The notes: generated from the sequence alone by a model not told the origin. 64,000 bases of DNA from Bdellovibrionales bacterium (GCA_965217115.1 OZ244239.1:1792001-1856000), one strand, 5' to 3'. Shown: positions 7,537 through 32,191, counted from the first letter of the stretch. Program-made: numbers and translations.

Positions 7537-8448
7537 ATGATGAATTTTCATCAATTGACTATATTTTGTACAGTTCTCAATGAAGAGAGTATGACGGCAG
7601 CGGCTGATAGGTTGTGTTTGACTCAACCAGCAGTGAGTCAGCAAATTCGTAACTTAGAAGAGGATGTAGGTGCAGACCTATTGGTTCGTGGAGTGAGGAA
7701 AATAAAACCGACACTTCAGGGGCAGCTTTTGTATGATTATGCAAAGAGAATTCTACAGCTAGGTCAACAGGCAGAGATGGCGATTCAAACCATAGGCGCT
7801 GAACTCCGTGGAAATGTGAGAATGGGGAGCTTAAACTCCATTGGGTTACATTTAATTAGCCCTACTGTAGGAATGTTTTTAAAACATAATACGGAATTAA
7901 AATTGAAATTAGATTACAATAGAGGAGAGGAACTTATTCGTGGTATGAACGAAGGTGAATTGGATGCTATTATTCTTCCAGAGACAGAAGAGGAATATGG
8001 CCGAGAAATTCATGGTTCTGATAAAAAGTTTTTAATGAAAGATGAGATGTGGTTGGTGGCATCAGGCCGAGATACATCGATTCCTAAGCATATTAAAATG
8101 GCGACTTTCTTTGAACGTCCCATGGTGGCTTTCTCTGGAGAATATCCCAAATTCAGCTTACGAATGAGAGAGCAAGTGATTAAGCATAACACATCTTTTG
8201 AACCTGTATTTGAATCTTCTAATGTGGGAACTTTAAAAAGAGCGGTGGAGTCAGGTTTGGGTTGGGGTTTTCTTCCATTTCACTGTATACGTAAACAAGT
8301 TCGTTCGGGAAGAATGGTTCGAATTCATGTAGAAGATTTTTCTTATGCTTCAGATTTAAATTTTTATTTTGTTAAAAGTGCAAAGAGGCAATCGATCATT
8401 GATGTCTTTTTCAGAGCATTACAGCATCAGGTCAATTCTATTATTTAA
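7537..8448 (+). CDS. LysR-family transcriptional regulator
   Basis: SMTAAADRLCLTQPAVSQQIRNLEE HTH; ~300 aa. Confidence 0.93.
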   Translation: MMNFHQLTIFCTVLNEESMTAAADRLCLTQPAVSQQIRNLEEDVGADLLVRGVRKIKPTLQGQLLYDYAKRILQLGQQAEMAIQTIGAELRGNVRMGSLNSIGLHLISPTVGMFLKHNTELKLKLDYNRGEELIRGMNEGELDAIILPETEEEYGREIHGSDKKFLMKDEMWLVASGRDTSIPKHIKMATFFERPMVAFSGEYPKFSLRMREQVIKHNTSFEPVFESSNVGTLKRAVESGLGWGFLPFHCIRKQVRSGRMVRIHVEDFSYASDLNFYFVKSAKRQSIIDVFFRALQHQVNSII

Positions 8449-8461
8449 ATAATTATTCTTC

Positions 8462-9298
8462 TTAGAATATAACACCATCAGGAAGTCCTGTGCGTGAAGA
8501 GACGATACGAGTGATTTCTGTAGCTGTTTCCTCTAGAGCTCTCTCAGTGATGTTAAATACAGGCCATCGGCGGTTTTCCTTAAAGAGAGACATTGAATAG
8601 TCAATTTCTTTGTTAATGTAGTTATAACTAGCATACTCTCCACCAGGGTCTTGTCCAAATTTTTGTAAGCGATTACTACGAAATTTTTTTAAATGATCAG
8701 GCTCGATAATTAAACCAATAATTTTTCTTTGATCCACTGCGAATAGTTCTTCTGGTAATGGCGTGTTCAAGACAATGGGAATATTAACAACCTTCCACCC
8801 TTTGTGACTGAGAAAAATAGATAGGGGTGTTTTGCTTGTACGACTTATTCCGACGAGTATAATATCAGCTTCTTCCAAGTTGGCTAAGCATTTTCCATCA
8901 TCACGTTTAACGGTGAATTCAATGGCTTCGATTCTTTTGTAGTATTTTTCATCTACGGCACGTAGGAGTCCAGCTTGGTGAGGGCTATCGCTATTGCCGA
9001 GATAAGTGTCGAGTCCATTTAATAGAGGGCCAAGAATATCTATAACAACTAAACCCTTTTCAGAACAGGAGGATGTGATATGTTTGCGTAGGCTGGGACT
9101 AACCATTGTGTGTAAGATAAGTGCTTGCTGATCAAAGGCATCGTCAATAATGGAATCTATTTGTGAGTCATTGCGGATATTTTTGTAACGAGTGATGTTA
9201 ATATCCGTTTGGTCATACTGGACAAGCGCTGCACGAATAATAGTGGCAGCTGTTTCTCCCGTGCCGTCTGAAATAATAAAAATAGTTGCTTGAGTCAA
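8462..9298 (-). CDS. PEP synthase/pyruvate phosphate dikinase regulatory kinase-pyrophosphorylase (DUF299)
   Basis: ISDGTGETA, AIEFTV..DDG, GISRTSKTP; TTG start after AAGGA. Confidence 0.92.
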   Translation of the reverse strand: MTQATIFIISDGTGETAATIIRAALVQYDQTDINITRYKNIRNDSQIDSIIDDAFDQQALILHTMVSPSLRKHITSSCSEKGLVVIDILGPLLNGLDTYLGNSDSPHQAGLLRAVDEKYYKRIEAIEFTVKRDDGKCLANLEEADIILVGISRTSKTPLSIFLSHKGWKVVNIPIVLNTPLPEELFAVDQRKIIGLIIEPDHLKKFRSNRLQKFGQDPGGEYASYNYINKEIDYSMSLFKENRRWPVFNITERALEETATEITRIVSSRTGLPDGVIF

Positions 9299-20116: not shown

Positions 20117-21814
20117 GTGGCTAAAAAAGTGAAAAAAACTATTCAAAAAAAATCGGTAAGAACAAAGAAAGCTTCATCTCGAGCAGTAAAAAATTCTTTG
20201 GAGAGGAAGTTTATCTTTGTGACGGGAGGAGTTGTATCCTCCATAGGTAAAGGTTTGGCGGCGGCGAGTCTAGCAACATTGCTAGAGGCGCGTGGGGTGA
20301 ATGTCACCATGATGAAATGTGACCCCTATATCAATGTGGACCCAGGGACGATGTCTCCTCTGCAACATGGAGAGGTTTATGTCACTGAGGATGGTGCGGA
20401 AACGGATTTGGATTTAGGTCATTATGAGAGATTTACATCGGCTCATTTGAGTCGAGCCAACAGTGTTAGCGCAGGGCAGGTTTATGAGAGTGTGATAGCT
20501 AAAGAGCGCCGTGGGGATTACTTGGGAGGAACAGTGCAGATAATTCCTCATATAACTAACGAGATTAAACGCTGTATTTGCAAGGCAAGCGAAGGGTTTG
20601 AAGTGATCATCGTGGAGATCGGCGGTACGGTAGGAGATATTGAAGGGTTGCCTTTTCTGGAAGCTATTCGACAGATGAGGGTGGATGTTGGTATTGAGAA
20701 TTCGCTTCTTATTCATGTAACCTATGTTCCCTATATAGCTGCGGCGGGAGAGTTGAAAAGTAAGCCTACGCAACATTCGGTTAAAGAGTTACAAAAAATT
20801 GGGTTAATTCCAGATTTTTTAGTTTGTCGCACAGAAAAAAAGATATCTAAAGATATTCGTAATAAAATAGGTCTTTTTTGTAACGTTAAAGTAGAGAATG
20901 TTATTGAGGCTGTAGATGCGACAACTATTTATGATGTGCCTTTGATGATGCACGATCAAGGTTTAGATATAAAAGTAACAAATAGATTGAACCTTAAAGT
21001 GAATAAACCTTCTTTGGCAGCTTGGAAAAAGATGGTCAATACGATTAAGAGCCCAAAAAATTCTCTGACCATTGGAATCATAGGTAAATATGTGGGGTTA
21101 AAGGAGAGCTATAAATCTCTACATGAGTCTCTTGTCCACGGAAGCATAGCTAATGAGGTAGAGATCAATATTGTGTATATAGATTCTGAAAAAATCAATA
21201 AGTCTAATGTGTCTCGTGCTTTAAAAGGTTTGCATGGAGTTCTTGTTCCAGGGGGATTTGGTGAGCGAGGTATTGAGGGAAAAATGATAGCTATAGGTTA
21301 TGCCCGTGAGAAGGAAATTCCATTCTTTGGAATTTGTCTAGGTATGCAGTTGGCTGCTATTGAGTTTGCTCGCAATGTGTGTGGTTTTAAAAAAGCTAAC
21401 AGTCGTGAGTTTTCTAAAACTCTTAAAGGGGAAAAGAGTTTTGTAATTGATTTTATGGAGGAACAAAAATCAGTTAAAGACAAAGGTGGAACTATGCGCT
21501 TAGGAGCTTATCCTTGTCATATTTCAGGAAAAACTCGCTTGTCCTCTATTTACAAAAACAAGGTGATTCATGAACGACATCGCCATCGTTTTGAGTTTAA
21601 TAATGATTATAAAGATATTTTTGCAAAAAATGGTATGTTAGCTTCAGGAATATGTCGAGAGAGAAATTTGGTGGAAGTCTTAGAGGTCAGTAAACATCCT
21701 TGGTTTGTGGGAGTGCAGTTTCATCCGGAGTTCAAATCTCGACCGACACAGCCACACCCATTATTTACTAGTTTTGTTAAAGCATCTTTAGCCAAGAAGA
21801 GAGGGCGTTTATGA
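20117..21814 (+). CDS. pyrG: CTP synthase
   Basis: GGVVSSIGKG, DLDLGHYER, GICLGMQ, QFHPEF. Confidence 0.97.
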   Translation: MAKKVKKTIQKKSVRTKKASSRAVKNSLERKFIFVTGGVVSSIGKGLAAASLATLLEARGVNVTMMKCDPYINVDPGTMSPLQHGEVYVTEDGAETDLDLGHYERFTSAHLSRANSVSAGQVYESVIAKERRGDYLGGTVQIIPHITNEIKRCICKASEGFEVIIVEIGGTVGDIEGLPFLEAIRQMRVDVGIENSLLIHVTYVPYIAAAGELKSKPTQHSVKELQKIGLIPDFLVCRTEKKISKDIRNKIGLFCNVKVENVIEAVDATTIYDVPLMMHDQGLDIKVTNRLNLKVNKPSLAAWKKMVNTIKSPKNSLTIGIIGKYVGLKESYKSLHESLVHGSIANEVEINIVYIDSEKINKSNVSRALKGLHGVLVPGGFGERGIEGKMIAIGYAREKEIPFFGICLGMQLAAIEFARNVCGFKKANSREFSKTLKGEKSFVIDFMEEQKSVKDKGGTMRLGAYPCHISGKTRLSSIYKNKVIHERHRHRFEFNNDYKDIFAKNGMLASGICRERNLVEVLEVSKHPWFVGVQFHPEFKSRPTQPHPLFTSFVKASLAKKRGRL

Positions 21815-22797
21815 AGAGTGAAAATATAAGGAAAGAGGCCATTCGAGTTTTAAAAATGGAGGCCGAGGGGGTTTTGTCTCTTATTGATCGGATTGATGAA
21901 AGCTTTGAAAAATCTGTTGAGATGATTTTAAATTGTAAAGGTAAGATTGTTGTTACAGGAATGGGAAAGTCAGGTCAAATTGGGCGTAAAATTTCCAGTA
22001 CAATGAGTTCGACAGGAACGTCGTCTGTGTTCATGCATCCAGCCGAGAGTGTACATGGAGATCTTGGTGTTATTAGCAATCAGGATCTAGTGATTGCTAT
22101 TAGCAACAGTGGTGAATCGTTGGAGCTTGATTACGTCGTGAAGTATGTTGTGCGTAAAGGAATTTCCTTGATTGCAATGACAGGTAATCCGGAGAGCACT
22201 TTGGGTCGGTCTAGTGATGTGGTTCTTAATATAGGTGTCGAAAAAGAGGCGTGCTCTTTGGGATTAGCTCCAACAACGAGTTCCACGGCGACATTGGCTA
22301 TGGGTGACGCATTGGCGATGACGGTCTTAAAGGCAAAGGGATTTCAAGAATCAGATTATGCTGAATTTCACCCTGGCGGAAGTTTAGGACGTCGCTTGCT
22401 AACACATGTGCAGGATGTAATGCATAGTAAAAGGGCGTTGCCATTAGTCCCTTTAGGGACACCCATGCGCGAGGTTTTTTCACTAATGACCTCTAAAGAG
22501 GTGAGGGGTGTTGCGGGAGTTGTTGATGCTCAAGGAGACTTGATTGGAATTGTCACTGATGGAGATGTGCGTCGGCTATTAGATAAGAAGGAAAATTCTT
22601 TTGATTGCAAGGTTGAAGAGATAATGGGACGTAATCCTAAAACCATCGATGTTCTTGAGATGGCAGAGAAGGCTTTGTTTATGATGGAGCAGTTTAAAAT
22701 ACTTCTTCTCTTTGTTGTGGACGGTAAGTCGTCGCAGCCAAGAAGTCCTGTGGGGATTTTGCATTTGCATGATTTGATTGATTCCAAAATACGGTGA
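21811..22797 (+). CDS. kdsD: Arabinose-5-phosphate isomerase (KpsF/GutQ; SIS + CBS domains)
   Basis: GMGKSG, HGDLG, APTTSST, FHPGGSLG. Confidence 0.95.
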   Translation: MKSENIRKEAIRVLKMEAEGVLSLIDRIDESFEKSVEMILNCKGKIVVTGMGKSGQIGRKISSTMSSTGTSSVFMHPAESVHGDLGVISNQDLVIAISNSGESLELDYVVKYVVRKGISLIAMTGNPESTLGRSSDVVLNIGVEKEACSLGLAPTTSSTATLAMGDALAMTVLKAKGFQESDYAEFHPGGSLGRRLLTHVQDVMHSKRALPLVPLGTPMREVFSLMTSKEVRGVAGVVDAQGDLIGIVTDGDVRRLLDKKENSFDCKVEEIMGRNPKTIDVLEMAEKALFMMEQFKILLLFVVDGKSSQPRSPVGILHLHDLIDSKIR

Positions 22798-22817
22798 TTG
22801 ATTTTGGCAGAGAAGGC

Positions 22818-22934
22818 GCTTTTTTAATGGACCTCCATTCTTTAGTTCAGACATGCGTTTGGCAGCGGCGCTCGCCTAAGGCGAGCATCGCACCAAGCCG
22901 AACTCACTAAAGAATAGAGGTCCATGAAAAAAGC
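22818..22934. repeat. 117-nt imperfect palindrome, copy 1
   Basis: GCTTTTTTAATGGACCTCCATTCTTTAGT...GCTCGCCT-A-AGGCGAGC...ACTAAAGAATAGAGGTCCATGAAAAAAGC. Confidence 0.9.
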
Positions 22935-22979
22935 TCTTTTTGAAAATCGCATGGGACTGGGGACAGCGGGGGGTAGAGA

Positions 22980-23154
22980 GGGAACAGCGAGGGGGACAGC
23001 GAGGGGAACAGCGAGGGGGACAGCGAGGGGGACAGCGAGGGGGACAGCGAGGGGGACAGCGAGGGGGACAGCGAGGGGGACAGCGAAGGGGACAGTGAAG
23101 GGGACAGTGAAGGGGACAGTGAAGGGAACAGTGAAGGGAACAGCGTGGGAACAG
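22980..23154 (+). repeat. G-rich 12-bp VNTR (GGGRACAGYGAR), ~15 units
   Basis: Counted 15 ACAG cores. Confidence 0.95.
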
Positions 23155-23404
23155 AAATAATCCTGATTTTACAGGAAAAAATGTTCTTAATGAATGTAAA
23201 GCCAAGTCTGAAGCCTGTAGTCTTGCAAGCACAACGATAATAGGAAGTGGTCTTATTTCTTGTGCCATTAAGAGCACTGCAAGAGTTGAGTAAATCTAAA
23301 ACTCTAGGTAAATAATCAAGCATTCCCCTTTGTAGAACGAAAGCTAGGGATTAACCGCTCAACGCTCCACAACTGGGATAGTTTTTAGCGTGACTCTAAA
23401 AGAA

Positions 23405-23698
23405 TTAGAGACATTCTTCTGGGGTCATCAATTTGTGCGTAAGAAGGAGGAATGATTTTTCCCTTGCATCTTCTTCTGACCTAAAACATCTAGCAAATGC
23501 CTGGCCATCATTAAGAGTAAGGGAAGCATAAACTATGCACGAAGGATCATTAGGTATACTTATATATTTTATCTTACTCTTGCAGATACTCCATTTATCA
23601 ACATCTTCTGATTCACAGCCTCCATTAGATTCAGCTAGGGTGGCTTCTCCAAATGAGAACATTAATCCGAGTACAAGCAGTGATAATGTCTTTTTCAT
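23405..23698 (-). CDS. Small secreted Cys-containing protein (array gene 1a)
   Basis: AGGAG RBS, MKKTLSLLVLGLMFSFGEATLA signal peptide, 5 Cys. Confidence 0.8.
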   Translation of the reverse strand: MKKTLSLLVLGLMFSFGEATLAESNGGCESEDVDKWSICKSKIKYISIPNDPSCIVYASLTLNDGQAFARCFRSEEDAREKSFLLLTHKLMTPEECL

Positions 23699-23929
23699 TT
23701 TTTTTCTCCTAATAATTGAGTATCGTTCTGTTTCCTTGGGAGATTAATTCTCCTAAATCTGACTGATACCGTTAATTTCTAAGGTTCTAGAGTACATATT
23801 CTATGCCATGGAGAAAATAGCTCAGACATCAATCTATCGGTAGTTGAGCTCTTTTGAGGTGTCTAGCCCCTAGCGTAGATTGTCAGTTTGGAGTTTTAAA
23901 AGAGGTTTTTCCTGGGTTCTTTCCCTTTT
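23699..23929 (-). promoter_or_regulatory. Conserved ~230-bp upstream/promoter module, repeated at 25827-26057 and 29357-29587
   Basis: Near-identical upstream of three array genes; contains RBS, TGGCAT-N5-ATGT (sigma54-like) and ACCGATAG (sigma28 -10-like). Confidence 0.6.
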
Positions 23930-23998
23930 TTGTGGATGGGAAATCGTCGCAGCCAAGAGATCTTGTGGGGATTTTGCATTTGTATGATTTGATTGATT
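23930..23998 (+). repeat. Duplicated 3' end of kdsD, copy 2 (with a 20-nt deletion at its end)
   Basis: TTGTGGATGGGAAATCGTCGCAGCCAAGA...GATTTGATTGATT matches ~22715-22783. Confidence 0.9.
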
Positions 23999-24012
23999 TT
24001 GGCAGAGAAGGC

Positions 24013-24129
24013 GCTTTTTTAATGGACCTCCATTCTTTAGTTCAGACATGCGTTTGGCAGCGGTGCTCGCCTAAGGCGAGCATCGCACCAAGCCGAACTC
24101 ACTAAAGAATGGAGGTCCATGAAAAAAGC
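24013..24129. repeat. 117-nt imperfect palindrome, copy 2
   Basis: Near-identical to 22818-22934. Confidence 0.9.
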
Positions 24130-24174
24130 TCTTTTTGAAAATCGCATGGGACTGGGGACAGCGGGGGGTAGAGA

Positions 24175-24287
24175 GGGAACAGCGTGGGAACAGCGAGGGG
24201 GACAGCGAAGGGGACAGCGTGGGGACAGCGAAGGGAACAGCGAAGGGGACAGTGAAGGGGACAGTGAAGGGAACAGCGTGGGAACAG
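24175..24287 (+). repeat. G-rich 12-bp VNTR, ~10 units (some 11-mers)
   Basis: Counted 10 ACAG cores. Confidence 0.9.
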
Positions 24288-24537
24288 AAATAGTCCTGAT
24301 TTTACAGAAAAAAATGTTCTTAATGAATGTAAAGCCAAGTCTGAAGCTTGTAGTCTTGCAAGCACAACGATAATAGGAAGTGGTCTTATTTCTTGTGCCG
24401 TTAAGAGCACTGCAAGAGATGAGTAAATCTAAAACTCTAGGTAAATAATCAAGCATTCCCCTTTGTAGAACGAAAGCTAGGGATTAACCGCTCAACGCTC
24501 CACAACTGGGATAGTTTTTAGCGTGACTCTAAAAGAA

Positions 24538-24828
24538 TTAGAGACATTCTTCTGGGGTCATCAATTTGTGCGTAAGGAGGAATGAATTTTCCCTTGCATC
24601 TTCTTCTGACCTAAAACATTTAGCAAATGTCTGGCCATCATTAAGAGTAAGGGAAGCATAAACTATGCACGAAGGATCATTAGGTATACTTATATATTTT
24701 ATCTTACTCTTACAGATACTCCATTTATCAACATCTTCTGATTCACAGCCTCCATTAGATTCAGCTAGGGTGGCTTCTCCAAATGAGAACATTAATCCGA
24801 GTACAAGCAGTGATAATGTCTTTTTCAT
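24538..24828 (-). CDS. Small secreted Cys-containing protein (array gene 1b, paralog of 23405-23698)
   Basis: Differs by 3 substitutions and one codon deletion. Confidence 0.8.
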   Translation of the reverse strand: MKKTLSLLVLGLMFSFGEATLAESNGGCESEDVDKWSICKSKIKYISIPNDPSCIVYASLTLNDGQTFAKCFRSEEDARENSFLLTHKLMTPEECL

Positions 24829-24916
24829 TTTTTTTCTCCTAATAATTGAGTATCGTTCTGTTTCATAAGTAGGCTATTTAATAATGAACCAATACTCATG
24901 TTCCAATAGATGAAGA

Positions 24917-24947
24917 AGGCAGGTTTTAGATAGTCTAAAACCTGCCT
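24917..24947 (-). terminator. Hairpin terminator downstream of array gene 2a
   Basis: AGGCAGGTTTTAGA-tag-TCTAAAACCTGCCT perfect stem. Confidence 0.75.
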
Positions 24948-24956
24948 ATGATTATT

Positions 24957-25826
24957 TTATTTTTTCCCTACTCTTGCAGCAGTCTTTTTGGGGTCTATCT
25001 TAGTTTGAGAGTTAGTTTTCTGGTTTACTACATTACGCACAACTCTTCCTTCTCCCTTAGCTAGATTAACTATCTTTTTTATAAGAGAAAGATCTCTAAA
25101 ACGTCGTTTAGCGAGGTGGTCCCGCCCTTCTTCATATAGTTCATTTATAATATTAGCATCAGAGTCACGAAATCTAGTCGATATACTCAGAAATCTCTCT
25201 ATTTGTGCCTCTGTTGGCTTTCCATCCACAAATAATTTGAAATACTCTTTCAATATATGCTCCCATACAGCATCTACTTCAACACGCTTTACACGATCGA
25301 TCTCAGTTAGAGCAGGCCAATTTTTTGGTGTTGTTTTAAACTCCTTCTCAGAATTCGTATTCACCATCACTTCTTGCGCTTCTGCTGCTAATCTATGCAT
25401 AATAAGAAACCTAAGTTTACGAAAGTTATGCGATATATCCAGAAATCTTCCCTTTTGTTCTATGTTTGGCGTTGTCATCAAAAATGATCTGAGATTCTCT
25501 TTCAATATATGCTCCCACCCAGCATCTACTTCAGCACGTCTTACACGATTGATCTTAGTTAGAGCGAGCCACTTTTCTGGTGTTGTTCCCAACTTGCTAA
25601 AGACTTCTTGTGCAAATTCTGACATTGCAGAAGTATAAAGCGCGCTCCCGTGGATATACTTAGCTCTTTCACTTCCGAAGAACGAAGAAAATACTGTTTT
25701 AGCCTCTCTCTCATTTGTTACTAGAACCTTATCTTGACCCTCGCCATATGGTATAGATACAGCTAGGGTGGATTCTCCAAATGAAAACATTAATCCGAGT
25801 ACAAGCAGTGATAATGTCTTTTTCAT
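24957..25826 (-). CDS. Secreted protein with internal repeat (array gene 2a)
   Basis: Same signal peptide as 1a/1b; TTP..W.ALT.I.RV.R.EVDA.WEHILKE occurs twice. Confidence 0.8.
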   Translation of the reverse strand: MKKTLSLLVLGLMFSFGESTLAVSIPYGEGQDKVLVTNEREAKTVFSSFFGSERAKYIHGSALYTSAMSEFAQEVFSKLGTTPEKWLALTKINRVRRAEVDAGWEHILKENLRSFLMTTPNIEQKGRFLDISHNFRKLRFLIMHRLAAEAQEVMVNTNSEKEFKTTPKNWPALTEIDRVKRVEVDAVWEHILKEYFKLFVDGKPTEAQIERFLSISTRFRDSDANIINELYEEGRDHLAKRRFRDLSLIKKIVNLAKGEGRVVRNVVNQKTNSQTKIDPKKTAARVGKK

Positions 25827-26057
25827 TTTTTTTCTCCTAATAATTGAGTATTGATCTATTTCCTTGGGAGATTAATTCTCCTAAATCTGACTAATACCGT
25901 TAATTTCTAAGGTTCTAGAGTACATATTCTATGCCATGGAGAAAACAGCTCAGACATCAATCTATCGGTAGTTGAGCTCTTTTGAGGTGTCTAGCCTCTA
26001 GCGTAAATTGTCAGTTTGGAGTTTTAAAAGAGGTTTTTCCTGGGTTCTTTTCCTTTT

Positions 26058-26140
26058 TTGTGGATGGGAAGTCGTCGCAGCCAAGAGATCTTGTGGGGAT
26101 TTTGCATTTGTATGATTTGATTGATTCCAAAATACGGTGA
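26058..26140 (+). repeat. Duplicated 3' end of kdsD, copy 3
   Basis: Matches through the stop codon (…CCAAAATACGGTGA). Confidence 0.9.
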
Positions 26141-26160
26141 TTGATTTTGGCAGAGAAGGC

Positions 26161-26277
26161 GCTTTTTTAATGGACCTCCATTCTTTAGTTCAGACATGCG
26201 TTTGGCAGCGATGCTCGCCTAAGGCGAGCATCGCACCAAGCCGAACTCACTAAAGAATAGAGGTCCATGAAAAAAGC
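26161..26277. repeat. 117-nt imperfect palindrome, copy 3
   Basis: Inner stem perfect here: GCGATGCTCGCCT-A-AGGCGAGCATCGC. Confidence 0.9.
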
Positions 26278-26322
26278 TCTTTTTGAAAATCGCATGGGAC
26301 TGGGGACAACGGGGGGTAGAGA

Positions 26323-26491
26323 GGGAACAGCGTAGGAACAGCGAAGGGGACAGTGAAGGGAACAGTGAAGGGAACAGCGTGGGAACAGCGAGGGGGACAG
26401 CGAAGGGGACAGCGAAGGGAACAGTGAAGGGAACAGTGAAGGGGACAGCGAAGGGAACAGTGAAGGGAACAGTGAAGGGGACAGCGAAGGG
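26323..26491 (+). repeat. G-rich 12-bp VNTR, ~14 units
   Basis: Counted 14 ACAG cores. Confidence 0.9.
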
Positions 26492-26657
26492 TGATTGATT
26501 TTGGTAGAGAAGGTACTTGTTACTTTAGTTACAAATATAGTGATCTCGAAGAGTATTGTTGAAAATGAGTTGACAAGTAATCGAGGTAGTTAGGAAAAGG
26601 GAACCCGCACATTCTCTATTGAACAAGTTCTGAACAAAGCCTCTAAACTACCGTATT

Positions 26658-28202
26658 TTAAGTTTCATTGAGAATATTTAATAGGATCTTTTTTTCAAAG
26701 CCGAATATATAAAATCTATGAAGCATTTTAAGGTAATCTTTTGATTGTTCTTTCTCCAAGGCCATTACCTTAAAAGAGTTAAACACATCTAAGAAATTCT
26801 TAGAGGCATTTATATCATCAAAAATATTTTTTAATATTGGGTATTGAGAAATTTTATCTACGTTGTTGAATTCATTTAAACCTGTTTTAGAAACTGCTGT
26901 TGATAAATATTCATACTCATTTTTATAAAATTTTACAATTTCATCTAATGTGTGTAAAAAAGATTGTTCAAATAAAATCAATTCTTGACGTAGTTCTTCC
27001 GTAGCTACTGTATTTCCTGACTTCTCTCCTAGCTCAATCTTTGCTTTAGTCGATTGAATTATGGATTCTAAGATAAACAGTGTCTCAAAATGTATAGACA
27101 TTATTTTATTTTCTGATTTTGAATTTTTTGGATAATGAAGCATTGGTGGCATAGGTTGATTTTTTTTAATAACAGTACTTGCTATTCTAATAACCTGTTT
27201 TCTTACCTTAAACCCGAAACCCTTAGTGTCGTGTCCAATTCTCCAAAACGCATGCCTAGTTGATTTAATTCCCCTTGTAATTTGATTCTTATATTCGTGA
27301 GGTATAAATAGAGATAAAACTCCACCAGAAACTCCAAACATCATACCTGCAATAGTGCCAGCTCCAGGAAACAATGTCGTTCCAACAACTCCAGCTGTAA
27401 CCATAGAAGTCACTAAAGTAACAAACTCACCAGTGGCAATTCTCTTTCTCCAAGCATTATACAGCCAAAGATTTCTTAATTCATGATTATGCCAAAGAAT
27501 CTTCATCATATTATTAAACACGACCTTAAGAACTCTCCAGTCATCTGCGGAATCAGCTGTGTGTAAAAAAATGCCATATTTAAGTGATCTTCCCAGCAAT
27601 GTCCCTAGCCCTTGAGCTTTCTGATAATCTGATTCATCTTCAATAAGCTCTACTGCCTCAGTATATAATTGCCCACCTAACTCCCAGCCAATAAAAGTGA
27701 CAAAAGTACTAATTCCTGCTTGTAAAAATTTTTTAAGCATTCCATTGGATGTTCCATTTTGTATCAGTGAATTGATAATTTGCAGTGGTTTTGCTGATAT
27801 TCCAGAGACCACTCCAGCTCCGATCAAACTACTCCATATTTCACCAGAATTGACAACATGTCCTGCCGCTTCTTTAATATGAGAAGCAAGAAGGTCCTTA
27901 TCAATTGTTTCAAGTGTTAAATTTGATTGTTCGACATGTTGTCTCACTAAATCAACACCAGTTAATATCATAATAAGCAATATGGCTTGGCCTTGATGGG
28001 CTAACACATTATTTGTATATCTGTTGCTCGCTCTTGTAGATTTACGAGCGGCCTTCTTAGTGAACCTTGCTGCTCTCCAACCACCATAATTCAGAGTAAT
28101 TTTTTCAAGAAAACTTTGACCCTTAGTTGGTGTGTGAATTTGAGCTTGGGACTGATGAGACAGTAAGGTAATAAAAATAAGTATCTTTATAATTATGTTC
28201 AT
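26658..28202 (-). CDS. Hypothetical exported protein with glycine-rich hydrophobic helices (array gene 3)
   Basis: 514 aa, GAGGGG RBS, signal peptide ending SQA, AGVVGTTLFPGAGTIAGMMFGVSGG segment. Confidence 0.8.
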   Translation of the reverse strand: MNIIIKILIFITLLSHQSQAQIHTPTKGQSFLEKITLNYGGWRAARFTKKAARKSTRASNRYTNNVLAHQGQAILLIMILTGVDLVRQHVEQSNLTLETIDKDLLASHIKEAAGHVVNSGEIWSSLIGAGVVSGISAKPLQIINSLIQNGTSNGMLKKFLQAGISTFVTFIGWELGGQLYTEAVELIEDESDYQKAQGLGTLLGRSLKYGIFLHTADSADDWRVLKVVFNNMMKILWHNHELRNLWLYNAWRKRIATGEFVTLVTSMVTAGVVGTTLFPGAGTIAGMMFGVSGGVLSLFIPHEYKNQITRGIKSTRHAFWRIGHDTKGFGFKVRKQVIRIASTVIKKNQPMPPMLHYPKNSKSENKIMSIHFETLFILESIIQSTKAKIELGEKSGNTVATEELRQELILFEQSFLHTLDEIVKFYKNEYEYLSTAVSKTGLNEFNNVDKISQYPILKNIFDDINASKNFLDVFNSFKVMALEKEQSKDYLKMLHRFYIFGFEKKILLNILNET

Positions 28203-28273
28203 TTTTTATCCCCTCAATTTCATAAGTAGGCTATTTAATAATGAACCAATACTCATGTTCCAATAGATGAAGA

Positions 28274-28304
28274 AGGCAGGTTTTAGATAGTCTAAAACCT
28301 GCCT
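28274..28304 (-). terminator. Hairpin terminator, identical to 24917-24947
   Basis: Same perfect stem. Confidence 0.75.
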
Positions 28305-28313
28305 ATGATTATT

Positions 28314-29356
28314 TTATTTTTTCCCTACTCTTGCAGCAGTCTTTTTGGGGTCTATCTTAGTTTGAGAGTTAGTTTTCTGGTTTACTACATTACGCACAAC
28401 TCTTCCTTCTCCCTTAGCTAGATTAACTATCTTTTTTATAAGAGAAAGATCTCTAAAACGTCGTTTAGCGAGGTGTTTCCGCCCTTTTTCATATAGCTCA
28501 TCTATAATATTAGCGTCAGAGTCACGAAATCTAATCGACATATTCAGAAATTTCTCTACTTGTGCCTCTGTTGGCTTTCCATCCACAAATAATTTGAGAT
28601 TCTCTTTCAATATATGCTCCCATCCAGCATCTACTTCAACACGCTTTACACGATCGATCTCAGTTAGAGCAGGCCACTTTTTTGGTGTTGTTCCAAACTT
28701 ATCAAAGACTTTTTTTGCGAATTTTGACATTTCAGAAGAATAAAGCATGCTCCCGTGGATATCCTTAGCTAACTCACCTCCGAAGAACGAAGAAAACACT
28801 CTTTTAGCTTGCGCTATTCTCATTGTGCTGCAATACCAAACTCCTTCTCAGAATAATTCTCAGATTTCGTATTCACCATCACTTCTCCAAGTGATTTTTG
28901 CCCTTCTGCTACTAATCTATTCATAGTAAGAAAATTAGATTCACGAAAGTTATACGGCGATGTATTCAGAAATCTTCTCTTTTGTTCCATGTTTGGCCTT
29001 GTTCATCAAAAATGATCTGAGATTCTCTTTCAATATATGCTCCCACCCAGCATCTACTTCAGCACGCTTACACGATCGATCTCAGTTAGAGCGAGCCACT
29101 TTTCTGGTGTTGTTCCCAACTTACTAAAGACTTCTTGTGCAAATTCTGACATTGCAGAAGTATAAAGCGCGCTCCCGTGGATATACTTAGCTCTGTTACC
29201 TCCGAAGAACGAAGAAAATACGTTTTTAGCCTCTGCCTGATTTGTTACTAGAGCCTTGCCATATGGTATAGCAACTACACCTGGGGTGGGTTCTCCAAAT
29301 AAAGCTCCACCATAAAAGACTAATCCGAGTACAAGCAGTGATAATGTTTTTTTCAT
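28314..29356 (-). pseudogene. Frameshifted paralog of array gene 2a with two fuller repeats (array gene 2b); frameshifts may be sequencing errors
   Basis: ORFs 29054-29356 and 28314-28823 match the N- and C-terminal parts of 2a; several indels between ~28820 and 29070. Confidence 0.75.
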
Positions 29357-29587
29357 TTTTTTTCTCCTAATAATTGGGTATCGATCTATTTCCTTGGGAG
29401 ATTAATTCTCCTAAATCTGACTAATACCGTTAATTTCTAAGGTTCTAGAGTACATATTCTATGCCATGGAGAAAATAGCTCAGACATCAATCTATCGGTA
29501 GTTGAGCTCTTTTGAGGTGTCTAGCCCCTAGCGTAGATTGTCAGTTTGGAGTTTTAAAAGAGGTTTTTCCTGGGTTCTTTTCCTTTT

Positions 29588-29670
29588 TTGTGGATGGGAA
29601 ATCGTCGCAGCCAAGAGATCCTGTGGGGATTTTGCATTTGTATGATTTGATTGATTCCAAAATATGGTGA
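29588..29670 (+). repeat. Duplicated 3' end of kdsD, copy 4
   Basis: Matches ~22715-22797. Confidence 0.9.
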
Positions 29671-29690
29671 TTGATTTTGGCAGAGAAGGC

Positions 29691-29807
29691 GCTTTTTTAA
29701 TGAACCTCCATTCTTTAGTTCAGACATGCGTTTGGCAGCGGTGCTCGCCTAAGGCGAGCATCGCACCAAGCCGAACTCACTAAAGAATAAAGGTCCATGA
29801 AAAAAGC
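29691..29807. repeat. 117-nt imperfect palindrome, copy 4 (no VNTR follows)
   Basis: Near-identical to copy 1. Confidence 0.9.
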
Positions 29808-29859
29808 TCTTTTTGAAAATCGCATGGGACTGGGGACAGCGGGGGGAGGGGGTAGGCGG

Positions 29860-29950
29860 GGGAACCGCCCAGCAAAGGACAACTCTATGCTATGTGCTTA
29901 AAGGCAACATGACTCAAATTGAAAGTTTACAGACTAATGTGGGAACCGCC
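29860..29950 (+). mobile_element. IS-end-like fragment, copy 3, bracketed by GGGAACCGCC direct repeats
   Basis: Reverse complement of 3003-3083. Confidence 0.65.
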
Positions 29951-30012
29951 ACCCTATGGTAACTCCTTTGTGGTTTTGTTGTTTTGGTGGGGTGACTATT
30001 TTGCTAAGGATT

Positions 30013-30495
30013 TTACTTGCAAATACCTCGTCTTCTAAGGTTTACAATTTTGTTTTTAAGGATTTTAGTTGCATCAGCTATCTCCTTAACGTATTCCCTC
30101 TGCACAAAAGGAATATCTCCAAATCCGATCTGGGCAATAGGTATTGGTGAAGAATCTCGCACCTGTTCTGTAACTGTTTCTCGGCCTCGTCCGAAGTGAC
30201 GTGTTTTACGATGATAAATACCAAGCTTATAGTCCCAATAGTCCAGAAAGAGCATCTTCTCTTCCGCGGTCATGACCAACAAAAACGGATGACTTATGAG
30301 AAGAATAGGGTCAATCTTCTCAGGCAACCCGCGAGTCCATGAATAGTCAATAAAGCAATCGACAGCAAGTTGAGTCCCAGGCTGCTTACCAGCAAGGCTT
30401 CTTTTTGTGTCAGCATTTAAAGACTGAATCCTTGTACCCATTCCCGAACAAGCAACAAAACTTAAGCTCAACAAGCACAGCATAATTATTTTCAT
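30013..30495 (-). CDS. Lipoprotein, hypothetical (array gene 4)
   Basis: MKIIMLCLLSLSFVACSG lipobox; AGGAG RBS. Confidence 0.78.
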   Translation of the reverse strand: MKIIMLCLLSLSFVACSGMGTRIQSLNADTKRSLAGKQPGTQLAVDCFIDYSWTRGLPEKIDPILLISHPFLLVMTAEEKMLFLDYWDYKLGIYHRKTRHFGRGRETVTEQVRDSSPIPIAQIGFGDIPFVQREYVKEIADATKILKNKIVNLRRRGICK

Positions 30496-30531
30496 AAACA
30501 AATCTCCTATTTATTTTTATTATCAATAAGT

Positions 30532-30558
30532 GTATCGGACTATTCTCGCTAAAGTTAA
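30532..30558 (-). promoter_or_regulatory. Putative sigma28 (FliA) promoter TTAA-N15-TCCGATAC
   Basis: Spacing matches TAAA-N15-GCCGATAA consensus; ~37 nt upstream of ATG. Confidence 0.55.
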
Positions 30559-30599
30559 GCTAGACTAGACTAAGCTAAACTAAACTAAACTAAACTAAA
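30555..30599. repeat. (CTAAA/CTAGA)n pentanucleotide microsatellite
   Basis: Read directly. Confidence 0.9.
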
Positions 30600-30634
30600 G
30601 GCGATTAAGGAGTCAGCTATTAGATAAATAGCTA

Positions 30635-30970
30635 TTAATCTATACACTCCACAAAGACCCTTTCGCCAGGTCTTATTATAACACTCTCGCCTTTATCTAA
30701 ATTAACAATACGGGTTGGCTTGCAAACAGGTAAGTGAGGATTTATATTACAAGGATCTACGATAGCTAGAACAGAGTTTCTTTTTCCGCAAGTTACTAAA
30801 GTTTCTTTTTCAATGCCTTGGAAAAAAAATGAGGGTTGTGTTAAAATAAATTTATCCTGGAAAGACGACGCGAGTTCCCTTTTATTAACCGTTTTAGATG
30901 TTGTTTTTTGCCTCACTCCAGAGCAGGCAACAAAACTTAAACTTAGCAGAGACAGGATAATTATTTTCAT
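30635..30970 (-). CDS. Lipoprotein, hypothetical (array gene 5)
   Basis: MKIIILSLLSLSFVACSG lipobox; AAGGA RBS. Confidence 0.78.
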   Translation of the reverse strand: MKIIILSLLSLSFVACSGVRQKTTSKTVNKRELASSFQDKFILTQPSFFFQGIEKETLVTCGKRNSVLAIVDPCNINPHLPVCKPTRIVNLDKGESVIIRPGERVFVECID

Positions 30971-31011
30971 AGTAAAATCCTTTCGTTTATATTAGTTAAT
31001 TGTAACAAACC

Positions 31012-31038
31012 TATCGGATTATTTAAGCTAAACTAAAC
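31012..31038 (-). promoter_or_regulatory. Putative sigma28 (FliA) promoter TTTA-N15-TCCGATAG
   Basis: Same arrangement as 30532-30558. Confidence 0.55.
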
Positions 31039-31066
31039 TAAACTAAACTAAACTAAACTAAACTAA
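31028..31066. repeat. (CTAAA)7+ microsatellite
   Basis: Read directly. Confidence 0.92.
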
Positions 31067-31181
31067 GATTGACTCTGATAATCTTGTTTAGCTGTTTCCC
31101 AGAAAGGGTTTGGAAGTAGTGTGAAGCATTTGGAAGCCTGTGAAGCTATAAAGGCCAATGAAAATAGTGGGTTAGTGTTCT

Positions 31182-31262
31182 GGCGGGCATTGCACCAAGT
31201 CGAACTTACTAAGGTCCATTAAAAAAGCTCTTTTTGAAAATGGCATGGGTTGGGAACAGAGG
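31182..31262 (+). repeat. Degenerate right half of the palindrome element plus its flank (copy 5)
   Basis: GGCGGGCATTGCACCAAGTCGAACTTACTAA-GGTCCATTAAAAAAGCTCTTTTTGAAAATGGCATGGG. Confidence 0.8.
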
Positions 31263-31426: not shown

Positions 31427-32191
31427 ATGAGAGAGAAAATGAAATTATTTTACAGTGCATTTAGATCAGTCCCTATTTTTTGCCTGTTGTGTGCCGTGAA
31501 TTCCTATGGAGCGGTGATTGAGTTTCCTGATTATGAGTTGGCCCCTGAGTCAGTGCTTCCTCTGTTTGATAAAGCAGTGAGTGTCCGTGATCGGCGTATT
31601 GTGAGTAGGGGTCGAATTGAGATGGGTATCTTTTCTGGTTTTTCATTGCTTGAGTCATTCTATAGTCAATACAGTGTTGGTGTTTCGTCGAGCTATCATT
31701 TTAATGAAATCAATGCTCTTCACGCTTCTTTTTTTTACTGGATACCAGGTTTAACTGAGCAAGCTCACTCGTTAAGAGAGAGGCATAATATTTTTCTAGA
31801 AAAAGCCCCGTCTCCAGAGAGTTACTTGACCTTAGAGTATCAGCACTCATCTTTTTATGGAAAAATGAGTATTTCTAAAAACTACGTCATAAACACTCAT
31901 ATCTATGGCCTACTTGGCGGGGGAGTGCAGCTTACTGGGGAGGCAACTTATCCAACGTTTAATTTTGGTTTGGGACAAAAGCTCTATTTCTCAAAATTAT
32001 TGGCATTGAGAGTTGATTTAAGAGGGGTTTTGTACAGTGGTCCCAATCCTCTCAAAGGACCTGCTTTTGGAGGTGAATCTAATAAGAGAAGGCCTCCACA
32101 TAGGGGATCTAGTAACTTAAGTTCAGAAGATTTTGAATCCCAGTTAATTTTTTCAACTCTTCTCTCTGTGGGTATGGTTTATCGTTTTTAG
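31427..32191 (+). CDS. Outer-membrane beta-barrel protein, GltA/GltB-like
   Basis: YHFNE, FYGKMS, GLGQK, C-terminal Phe; head of the Agl-Glt cluster. Confidence 0.75.
   Translation: MREKMKLFYSAFRSVPIFCLLCAVNSYGAVIEFPDYELAPESVLPLFDKAVSVRDRRIVSRGRIEMGIFSGFSLLESFYSQYSVGVSSSYHFNEINALHASFFYWIPGLTEQAHSLRERHNIFLEKAPSPESYLTLEYQHSSFYGKMSISKNYVINTHIYGLLGGGVQLTGEATYPTFNFGLGQKLYFSKLLALRVDLRGVLYSGPNPLKGPAFGGESNKRRPPHRGSSNLSSEDFESQLIFSTLLSVGMVYRF

Follow-up and report, generated by a model that had tools for sequence, protein, structure and literature searches.

The 64,000-nt window analysed here (G000:C1:1792001-1856000) lies in the genome of a Bdellovibrionales bacterium (GCA_965217115.1), which is a single 2.17-Mb contig. 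In this window, the 8.6 kb between kdsD and a glt-like gliding cluster that opens with OMP_myx_plus genes is a tandem array of genes for predicted exported proteins. The array was probably formed in situ, by unequal and illegitimate recombination that took place around hairpins and among repeat modules occurring genome-wide. Its building blocks are denoted k (the kdsD 3' end), P (the hairpin), V (a G-rich 12-mer array) and U (an upstream module). In an alignment, the three internal U-k junctions were identical in sequence, which indicates one joining event that was later copied rather than three arrivals. Since the units also overlap in cargo, the three internal blocks appear to descend from one another.

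Layout of the array and descent of its units

Four k-P-V blocks start at 22703, 23921, 26045 and 29575, V being absent from the fourth, and three 226-bp U modules adjoin blocks 2-4. With the cargo on the minus strand, unit 1 reads kdsD(k)-P1-V1-t-X1-U1 and unit 2 reads k2-P2-V2-t-X2-u'-j-Y1-U2. Unit 3 is k3-P3-V3-(24-nt hairpin start)-z-Z-j-Y2-U3, and unit 4 runs from k4-P4 to L1-(TAAAC)n-L2-(TAAAC)n-half-P, followed by the glt-like genes. The seven cargo genes on the minus strand (X1, X2, Y1, Z, Y2, L1 and L2) belong to five families. To the right, from 31427 onward, an OMP_myx_plus pair is followed by a GltC-like TPR gene. The features are listed below with the evidence for each; open reading frame is abbreviated to ORF and Tandem Repeats Finder to TRF.

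21811-22797, plus strand: kdsD, encoding a KpsF/GutQ-family arabinose-5-phosphate isomerase, left anchor (Pfam SIS and CBS; NCBIfam TIGR00393, 306.8 bits, above the cut-off)
22703-22797, plus: native k, the last ~95 nt of kdsD (repeat comparison)
22809-22953, plus: hairpin P1, whose ~20-nt left extension begins directly after the kdsD stop codon (fold; covariance model match)
22959-23149, plus: V1, 16.2 copies of a G-rich 12-mer, the cargo-sense strand being C-rich and G-poor (TRF)
23150-23404, no strand: t1, 255-nt tail between V and X, with a second copy at 24283-24537 (5/255 nt differ; sequence comparison)
23405-23698, minus: X1, 97 aa, Cys-containing, with a signal-like N-terminal sequence (ORF call)
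23699-23922, minus: U1, putative promoter/leader module (BLAST, nhmmer)
23921-24148, plus: block 2, k2 and hairpin P2; k2 has a 20-nt deletion between TGATTGATT repeats (self-BLAST, alignment)
24154-24287, plus: V2, ~9 units (TRF: 8.9 copies at 24174)
24538-24828, minus: X2, 96 aa, 96% identical to X1 (ORF call, comparison)
24829-24864, minus: u', the last 36 bp of U and all that remains of U ahead of X2 (BLAST)
24861-24956, no strand: j, a spacer with a perfect 14-bp-stem palindrome at 24917-24947; second copy at 28218-28313 (repeat search)
24957-25826, minus: Y1, 289 aa, with a signal-peptide start as in X and two internal ~84-aa repeats (ORF call)
25827-26052, minus: U2 (BLAST)
26053-26296, plus: block 3, k3 and hairpin P3 (self-BLAST, alignment)
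26322-26491, plus: V3, 14.3 units (TRF)
26493-26516, plus: truncated start of a further hairpin, left extension only (read against the hairpin alignment)
26658-28202, minus: Z, an all-helical protein of 514 aa whose N-terminus is signal-like and which has hydrophobic segments rich in Gly (ORF call, model)
28314-29356, minus: Y2, a Y1 paralogue with a third internal repeat, in three ORF pieces in the window (ORF call)
29357-29582, minus: U3 (BLAST)
29583-29870, plus: block 4, k4, hairpin P4 and a degenerate G-rich tail without array (TRF, self-BLAST, alignment)
30013-30501, minus: L1, 162 aa, lipobox-type N-terminus (ORF call)
30556-30599, no strand: (TAAAC) tract of 8.8 units upstream of L1 (TRF)
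30635-30970, minus: L2, 111 aa, lipobox-type N-terminus (ORF call)
31024-31066, no strand: (TAAAC) tract of 8.6 units upstream of L2 (TRF)
31182-31262, plus: decayed right half-hairpin and tail start, from the hairpin apex (profile positions 63-129, E 1.1e-7; 80% identity)
31427-32191, plus: first of two OMP_myx_plus beta-barrel genes opening the glt-like gliding cluster, right anchor (family profile; synteny)

A repeat search returned a 280-nt family with four copies (22710, 23905, 26053 and 29583; 77-96% identity to the first), a 300-nt family made of the signal-peptide start and the upstream module with three copies (23647, 25775 and 29305; 96-100% identity), and a 39-nt piece of the right hairpin arm with five copies, including 31211-31249. 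Self-BLAST paired 22703-23145 with 26045-26486 (92%), 22703-22973 with 29575-29846 (95%), 22706-23734 with 23921-24864 (89%) and 22880-22969 with 31182-31262 (80%). TRF called 12-mer arrays at 22959, 24174 and 26322 and none behind block 4. An earlier, sequence-only reading of this stretch had described a block of kdsD end, palindrome and tandem repeat occurring four times with a decayed half copy, and repeat search, self-BLAST, TRF and folding agree with it. The absence of the 12-mer array from the last block was likewise reproduced, and the upstream module and signal-peptide start said to abut copies 2-4 correspond to the 300-nt family. The seven minus-strand genes are present, and by eye their starts resemble signal peptides or lipoboxes. 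Alignment bore out that the copies differ by single-nucleotide polymorphisms (SNPs), indels and array length, and the self-comparison of the array by BLAST confirmed its repeat pairs.

Longer units recur as well. The unit j-Y-U-k-P at 24861-26316 is found again at 28218-29846, and a 109-bp repeat at 24756-24864 matches 25754-25862 with 94.5% identity. Hairpins are broken at two positions, one cut lying after the 24-nt left extension at 26516 and one at the apex at 31182. Across the genome, 112 repeat pairs reach 400 bp or more; in 82 of them, spread over about 20 regions, the two copies are direct and separated by less than 10 kb. We propose that a single illegitimate event linked the distal end of U with the ~90 nt that close kdsD, which would have produced a head-to-tail unit of k, P, V, cargo and U. 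Unequal crossing-over and gene conversion between the long repeats, homologous and presumably of the RecA type, would then have multiplied and reshuffled the units, and X1/X2 and Y1/Y2 would be products of unequal recombination between them. A deletion between the two 109-bp signal-peptide repeats would turn the unit-2 type (U-Y-j-u'-X) into unit 1 (U-X), and the breaks at the hairpin base and apex may have given further joins.

The k module (~90 nt) is the only one confined to the kdsD locus, where all of its BLAST matches fall (4/4). Within the first ~55 nt, 7 positions set native k apart from the three copies, and no fixed difference occurs over the next ~205 nt, which span the kdsD end, the spacer, the hairpin and the beginning of the tail. 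The copies are 98% alike mutually, and their left part is 13% diverged from native kdsD (7/~55 nt). The last of the differences, CAT to TAT, replaces His by Tyr within KdsD's conserved HLHDL stretch. We read this sharp step, followed by a uniform hairpin region, as concerted evolution halted where KdsD would be damaged: recombination would keep the hairpin region uniform, and selection on KdsD would stop this at the His-to-Tyr codon. A resemblance of left k to generic sequence distal to other U copies was too patchy to use. At 25982-26140 and 29512-29670 the U-k junction creates an ORF of 52 aa with a TTG start, which closes with the 26 final residues of a KdsD-like C-terminus and is probably not expressed.

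Among 30 relatives, KdsD was found in 28 and the outer-membrane protein (OMP) gene in all 30. Where both genes are co-oriented on one contig, the coordinates place them mostly 0.05-1 kb apart, and the gap is ~317 bp in G001, the only genome of the same family. Exceptions are G023 (gap of ~3 kb), G013 (~4 kb) and two genomes, G009 and G030, where the arrangement is inverted and measures 7 kb. The short gap in most relatives argues for a lineage-specific array. The kdsD-glt interval, compared across relatives as the sequence-only reading had envisaged, is a lineage-specific accessory islet bounded by repeats. Three modules that recur in the genome make it up: the conserved hairpin with its G-rich tail (P+V), located behind gene 3' ends; U, which precedes exported-protein genes; and the common signal-peptide start.

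Hairpin family, tail and upstream module across the genome

P is ~125 nt long and has a folding energy of -70 to -71 kcal/mol (z -5.9 and -8.3), which none of 200 shuffles equalled. The 163-nt hairpin region has 60 BLAST matches across the genome, and an iterated nhmmer profile of P gave 144 matches over both strands, which reduce to 77 loci in 19 clusters. Orientation within clusters is mostly uniform. Some clusters are bare arrays of hairpin and tail with a spacing of 165-285 bp, and others are kb-spaced with intervening genes. In an alignment of 25 of the 77 copies, picked from 9 clusters, the core was invariant and asymmetric, and the outer stem varied between clusters with its pairing kept; double compensatory changes were seen in 25 of 42 predicted pairs. 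Outer stems are alike within a cluster and different between clusters, and such cluster-specific variants indicate local copying. Among the 70 full-length hairpins, crude ORF calls gave 48 whose k-side neighbour has its 3' end facing the hairpin (at a distance of up to 60 nt in 21 of them) and 51 with a convergent gene on the tail side. A covariance model built from the 25-copy alignment, with at most 52 candidates scored per genome, found P in 5 of 60 relatives (G005, 9 matches; G007, 21; G011, 7; G020, 7; G021, 1); it did not find P in the only same-family genome.

No Rfam family matches P, and a literature search for Bdellovibrio palindromic intergenic repeats found no such family, which is not proof of its being unpublished. 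Enterobacterial repetitive intergenic consensus (ERIC) elements and repetitive extragenic palindromes (REP), with their bacterial interspersed mosaic elements (BIME), are intergenic hairpin repeats. P resembles them as an imperfect palindrome of ~125 nt with tens of dispersed copies outside coding regions, also in tandem, situated behind gene 3' ends and between convergent genes. It differs in its invariant asymmetric core, its covarying outer stem and a strand-specific G- or purine-rich tail that expands into minisatellites, and, besides lacking an Rfam match, it is not accompanied by a REP-associated tyrosine transposase (RAYT) of the Y1 type (PF01797, 0 matches in the genome). Miniature inverted-repeat transposable elements (MITEs) have target-site duplications and conserved terminal inverted repeats, whereas the ends of P are its variable part, which argues against a MITE.

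A tandem array adjoins the tail side in 22 of the 77 hairpins and is G- or purine-rich on the hairpin strand, so that tail expansion appears to be a trait of the hairpin family. The units of these tail minisatellites measure 8-96 nt (for example at 416421-416942, 881750-881948 and 1355865-1356010 of G000:C1). ORFs running through the 12-mer array on both strands were dismissed as spurious; the plus-strand ATG lies in a hairpin arm and is missing in other hairpin variants. The tail is located between each cargo gene's stop and the hairpin, and is C-rich and G-poor in the cargo-sense RNA. Such a composition is known from Rho utilisation sites. By this analogy, P and V may end the convergent kdsD and cargo transcripts, through a hairpin and, on the cargo RNA, a Rho-site-like tail. 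In a relative from another family of the order, locus L133 (G007:C39:33000-44000) holds two 94%-identical arrays of hairpin and tail, at 2281-2683 and 8400-8801, 6.1 kb apart. They flank minus-strand genes, several with hydrophobic signal-like N-termini, a layout that matches the kdsD array minus the captured gene end.

The U module has 18 BLAST matches in the genome, and nhmmer finds ~20 copies of a ~200-nt family. In all copies read, U lies directly upstream of signal-peptide-like gene starts. It contains a nearly invariant TGGCAT-N5-ATGTA stretch and an AGGAGA...TCTCC hairpin that includes the Shine-Dalgarno sequence; in three copies this AGGAGA is the actual ribosome-binding site. U thus looks like a promoter plus leader common to ~20 exported-protein genes, and may mark a regulon of about 20 exported proteins. 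A sigma-70 promoter scan gave no signal (23 sites vs 21 expected), and the three Rfam matches to freshwater-2, on the last 80 nt of the array's three U copies, were sub-threshold (28 bits against a gathering score of 49.9, E ~0.7) and were discarded as evidence. Copies outside the array occupy about 17 places in G000, such as C1:828931, 845358 and 2119694. Just distal to several of them lies a second hairpin family (G000:C1 around 828.8, 1589.5, 1674.0, 195.7 and 1972.5 kb), whose flanks are similar to the P core and whose central stem reads CCTTCCATTGCA...TGCAATGGAAG.

Five other hairpin clusters were mapped, and all hold exported-protein genes between the hairpins. In three of the clusters these genes are tandem paralogues (427-430, 527-531 and 1909-1911 kb), and in most of the five the cargo is convergent on the anchor gene. 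The rlmN-hldA islet (912-921 kb) has three reiterated copies of P together with ~45-50 nt from the hldA 3' end, and the far end of U adjoins the hldA piece in two of the three copies. The islet is like the kdsD array in its hairpin family, U module, reiterated anchor-gene end and convergent exported-protein cargo, and differs in the anchor gene, the shorter captured piece, the cargo and the hairpin variant. At the clusters at 427, 474 and 1908 kb and at six loci in relatives, no captured gene piece was found beyond the left extension.

Competing accounts of the array and comparison with known systems

Tandem gene amplification by unequal crossing-over, for instance between REP, insertion sequence (IS) or rrn copies, is known from Salmonella and E. 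coli. The kdsD array is like it in having head-to-tail units, one novel junction in all internal copies, copies closer to each other than to anything outside, and divergence at the terminal edge. It differs in that the homology is composite, combining a minisatellite and a promoter module with a structured hairpin and the captured end of a gene, and in that its units have diverged in cargo.

Several points weigh against an origin by recombination in situ. Duplication leaves the five unrelated cargo families unexplained. The rest of the genome holds no paralogue of X, Y, Z or L1, the patchy occurrence of Z looks like transfer, and import of cargo by homologous recombination through the common modules is possible. 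The sharp divergence step in k would also suit a crossover point within an attachment (att) site. The kdsD and rlmN-hldA loci show one type of scar, and a recurrent junction would be expected from a directed process; with the scar at rlmN-hldA as at kdsD, site-specific cassette capture is conceivable. The part assigned to RecA is inferred, and the short-read contigs break at repeats and include no copy-number variation, circle or spanning read. Part of the recurrent junction has a plainer cause. The left extension of P begins at or over the anchor gene's stop codon, so that a duplicated stretch can only contain a whole hairpin if it starts within the anchor gene; likewise, it can only contain a whole promoter if it ends beyond U.

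The units could instead have been imported by homologous, Campbell-type recombination through k-P and/or U, as linear fragments or as circles excised from loci of this kind in other cells, so that the array would consist of mixed alleles of a kdsD hot spot from different strains. We regard this as unlikely. The left k copies, alike among themselves and 13% diverged from native kdsD, would fit a foreign kdsD end; cargo without paralogues and the patchiness of Z in the order point the same way, and P and U offer portable homology at many loci. No donor was found, however. A metagenome scan with KdsD returned 80 loci, the best 61% identical, and no near relative. The only same-family genome lacks both array and hairpin, and five Z homologue loci in relatives have no hairpin within ~1.5 kb on each side. 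The common junction and cargo, moreover, make at least the last steps internal.

It is also conceivable, and in our estimate quite improbable, that a hairpin-directed cassette system uses P as its site of recombination. This would resemble an integron, an attC cluster that has no integron-integrase (CALIN), or the accretion of cis-mobilizable elements (CIMEs), and a recombinase in trans, either Xer or the tyrosine recombinase at 743 kb, would insert self-promoted cassettes for exported proteins behind housekeeping genes. In favour of this idea are the 77 hairpins in 19 clusters, mostly co-oriented per cluster, the compensatory changes in 25 of 42 stem pairs around an invariant core, the convergence of cargo on the anchor gene in the clusters mapped, the reiteration of an anchor 3' end beside P at two loci, and the patchy distribution of P across the order (5/60 relatives). 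Integron cassettes are mostly promoterless and co-oriented, and each ends in its site; in the array the genes are co-oriented, each unit ends in P, and three units carry U, a putative promoter module that precedes about 20 genes elsewhere. The genome encodes two Xer-like tyrosine recombinases and one further tyrosine recombinase, which is located at 743 kb and so 1.07 Mb away from the array; a serine-recombinase fragment of 83 aa and an rve-family protein (1562 kb) were also found. Against the integron-integrase models, the best scores of the three PF00589 proteins are 46-121 bits (cut-offs 265 and 435), and no protein reaches these cut-offs. Y1_Tnp (PF01797), IS110 and DDE_Tnp_1 have 0 matches in the genome, and no recombinase gene lies within the window, as the sequence-only reading had stated, or near any array examined.

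The structure of P speaks against such a system as well. attC sites are imperfect palindromes with conserved outer R and L boxes, an R' core of GTTRRRY and a variable centre. In P the conservation is reversed, with a conserved core and a variable outer stem, and the R' core motif is missing in all four hairpins (0 of 99 GTTRRRY matches in the window fall inside them). The array resembles a CALIN (Cury et al. 2016, PMC4889954) in its clustering of two or more co-oriented structured sites, the small genes without assigned function between them and the lack of a nearby integrase. It departs from a CALIN in that each unit has what appears to be its own promoter module (U), that the hairpin variants are cluster-specific, so that units seem not to move between clusters, and that many clusters are bare P+V arrays of 165-285 bp spacing devoid of cargo. 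The genome search returned no IntI-class protein, which is needed for an integron and not for a CALIN. Should the hairpin prove to be a genuine site of recombination, the cassette system would be a new one; the evidence leans against it.

CIMEs and other integrative elements can accrete in tandem at the 3' end of a gene. In the array, too, direct repeats with the target gene's 3' end bound the units (k at four boundaries), and the gene is intact. However, the units of 1.2-3.5 kb contain neither an integrase or relaxase nor a remnant of either, and they share cargo and one junction and so are not of independent origin. The repeat is ~300-600 bp long and made of several modules, as opposed to a short att core, and no cognate integrase is present in the window, the only non-Xer tyrosine recombinase being 1.07 Mb away. 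A further idea, which we hold to be a long shot, is that P is the site of an undescribed hairpin-directed system of Bdellovibrio-like bacteria whose enzyme, Xer or the orphan tyrosine recombinase, would act in trans, placing self-promoted cassettes for exported proteins behind housekeeping genes and copying the anchor-gene end in the process. If true, the units would be a promoter-carrying counterpart of integron cassettes, and the kdsD and hldA arrays would be two of 19 docking sites.

The sequence-only reading had pictured an expandable locus that accumulates and reshuffles secreted-effector genes. Reshuffling stands, insofar as X and Y each occurring twice and the U-k junction occurring three times show recombination between repeats. 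Its alternative of iterative integration regenerating the kdsD 3' end does not, since this needs independent arrivals, whereas the internal blocks share one identical junction and cargo, and the genome searches returned no integron integrase and no Y1 or IS110 transposase. The block is not a locus-specific device either, kdsD being one of 19 clusters of a genome-wide hairpin family. A genome search for further blocks and a recombinase recovered P, the seed of the G-rich tail and U genome-wide; k was found only here, and no linked recombinase emerged. The accumulation of secreted effectors was overstated, with five distinct cargo families and no credible functional matches.

With recombination in situ as the preferred origin, the array shows a small (2.17 Mb), predator-type genome making and diversifying exported-protein genes. 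Long homology behind housekeeping genes would come from a portable promoter/leader module and from a structured hairpin whose tail is a minisatellite, and ordinary recombination would build arrays there. Mechanistically the array is ordinary; less so are two of its modules, the hairpin family and U.

The reads comprise four runs of one sample, all of them short-read contig sets. These contigs reproduce unique stretches exactly, for example 26567-28247 (Z into j), and break at repeats without giving joints; depths were not used as copy numbers. In Y2 (28568-29190) they differ from the window by 12 substitutions, 7 additional nt after 28828, 1 nt fewer at 29002 and 1 additional nt after 29066, which suggests imperfect polishing in the repeats. 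Together, these changes turn the three ORF pieces into one open frame of 350 aa. Y2 is thus probably intact, and its breaks in the window would reflect a polishing error or a second allele. At 7 of the 10 mappable differences the contigs have Y1's letters, which fits either exchange or conversion between copies or mis-polishing. Other letters at 24400-24712, 23215, 26211 and 29621 were those of a paralogous copy and were uninformative. That the array, its copy number or its order is an assembly artefact is very unlikely: the Y2 disagreement (12 substitutions, 3 indels) and the lack of any read or contig spanning the array would allow it, but the genome is one contig, the copies differ by SNPs, indels and array length, the unique stretches and the Z-to-j join are matched without difference, and analogous arrays occur at many other loci.

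Cargo proteins and minor observations

The N-termini of the cargo proteins, read by eye, resemble Sec signals or lipoboxes, and the proteins are predicted to be exported; an effector role would be a guess. X1 and X2 differ at 5/291 nt. X and Y have U and the first ~32 codons in common (75% amino acid identity) and nothing beyond. The C-terminal parts of Y1 and Y2 differ at 17/384 nt, and the 13 non-synonymous and 2 synonymous differences in these 128 codons are too few to call selection. A Pfam scan of X1, Y1, Z, the C-terminal ORF of Y2, L1 and L2 gave nothing credible, its sole match being a sub-cut-off one to TRCF on the C-terminal piece of Y2. NCBIfam had no match for X1, Y1, L1 and L2, and ESM Atlas no usable match for Z or Y.

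Z belongs to a family of uncharacterised, all-helical proteins of ~500-640 aa with an invariant FPGAGT..G..FG around residue 278-290. Its AlphaFold model is all-helical with a mean predicted local distance difference test (pLDDT) score of 66, and Foldseek gave 0 matches in the PDB at E <= 0.001. Homologues of Z were found in 16 of the 200 other genomes of the order, the best 40% identical, and 16 metagenome relatives had 33-45% identity. In the same 200 genomes, X was unmatched, and a single marginal match was found for Y (E 3.3e-4).

The 5' regions of L1 and L2 are copies with 79% identity. Their (TAAAC) tracts lie 54-100 nt upstream of the genes, a layout that resembles slipped-strand phase-variable promoters, and reads seem cut at both tracts. 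A 68-nt piece of t (23310-23377 and 24443-24510) is 94% identical to G000:C1:1580477-1580544, 234 kb away, and read contigs continue from this piece into that locus.

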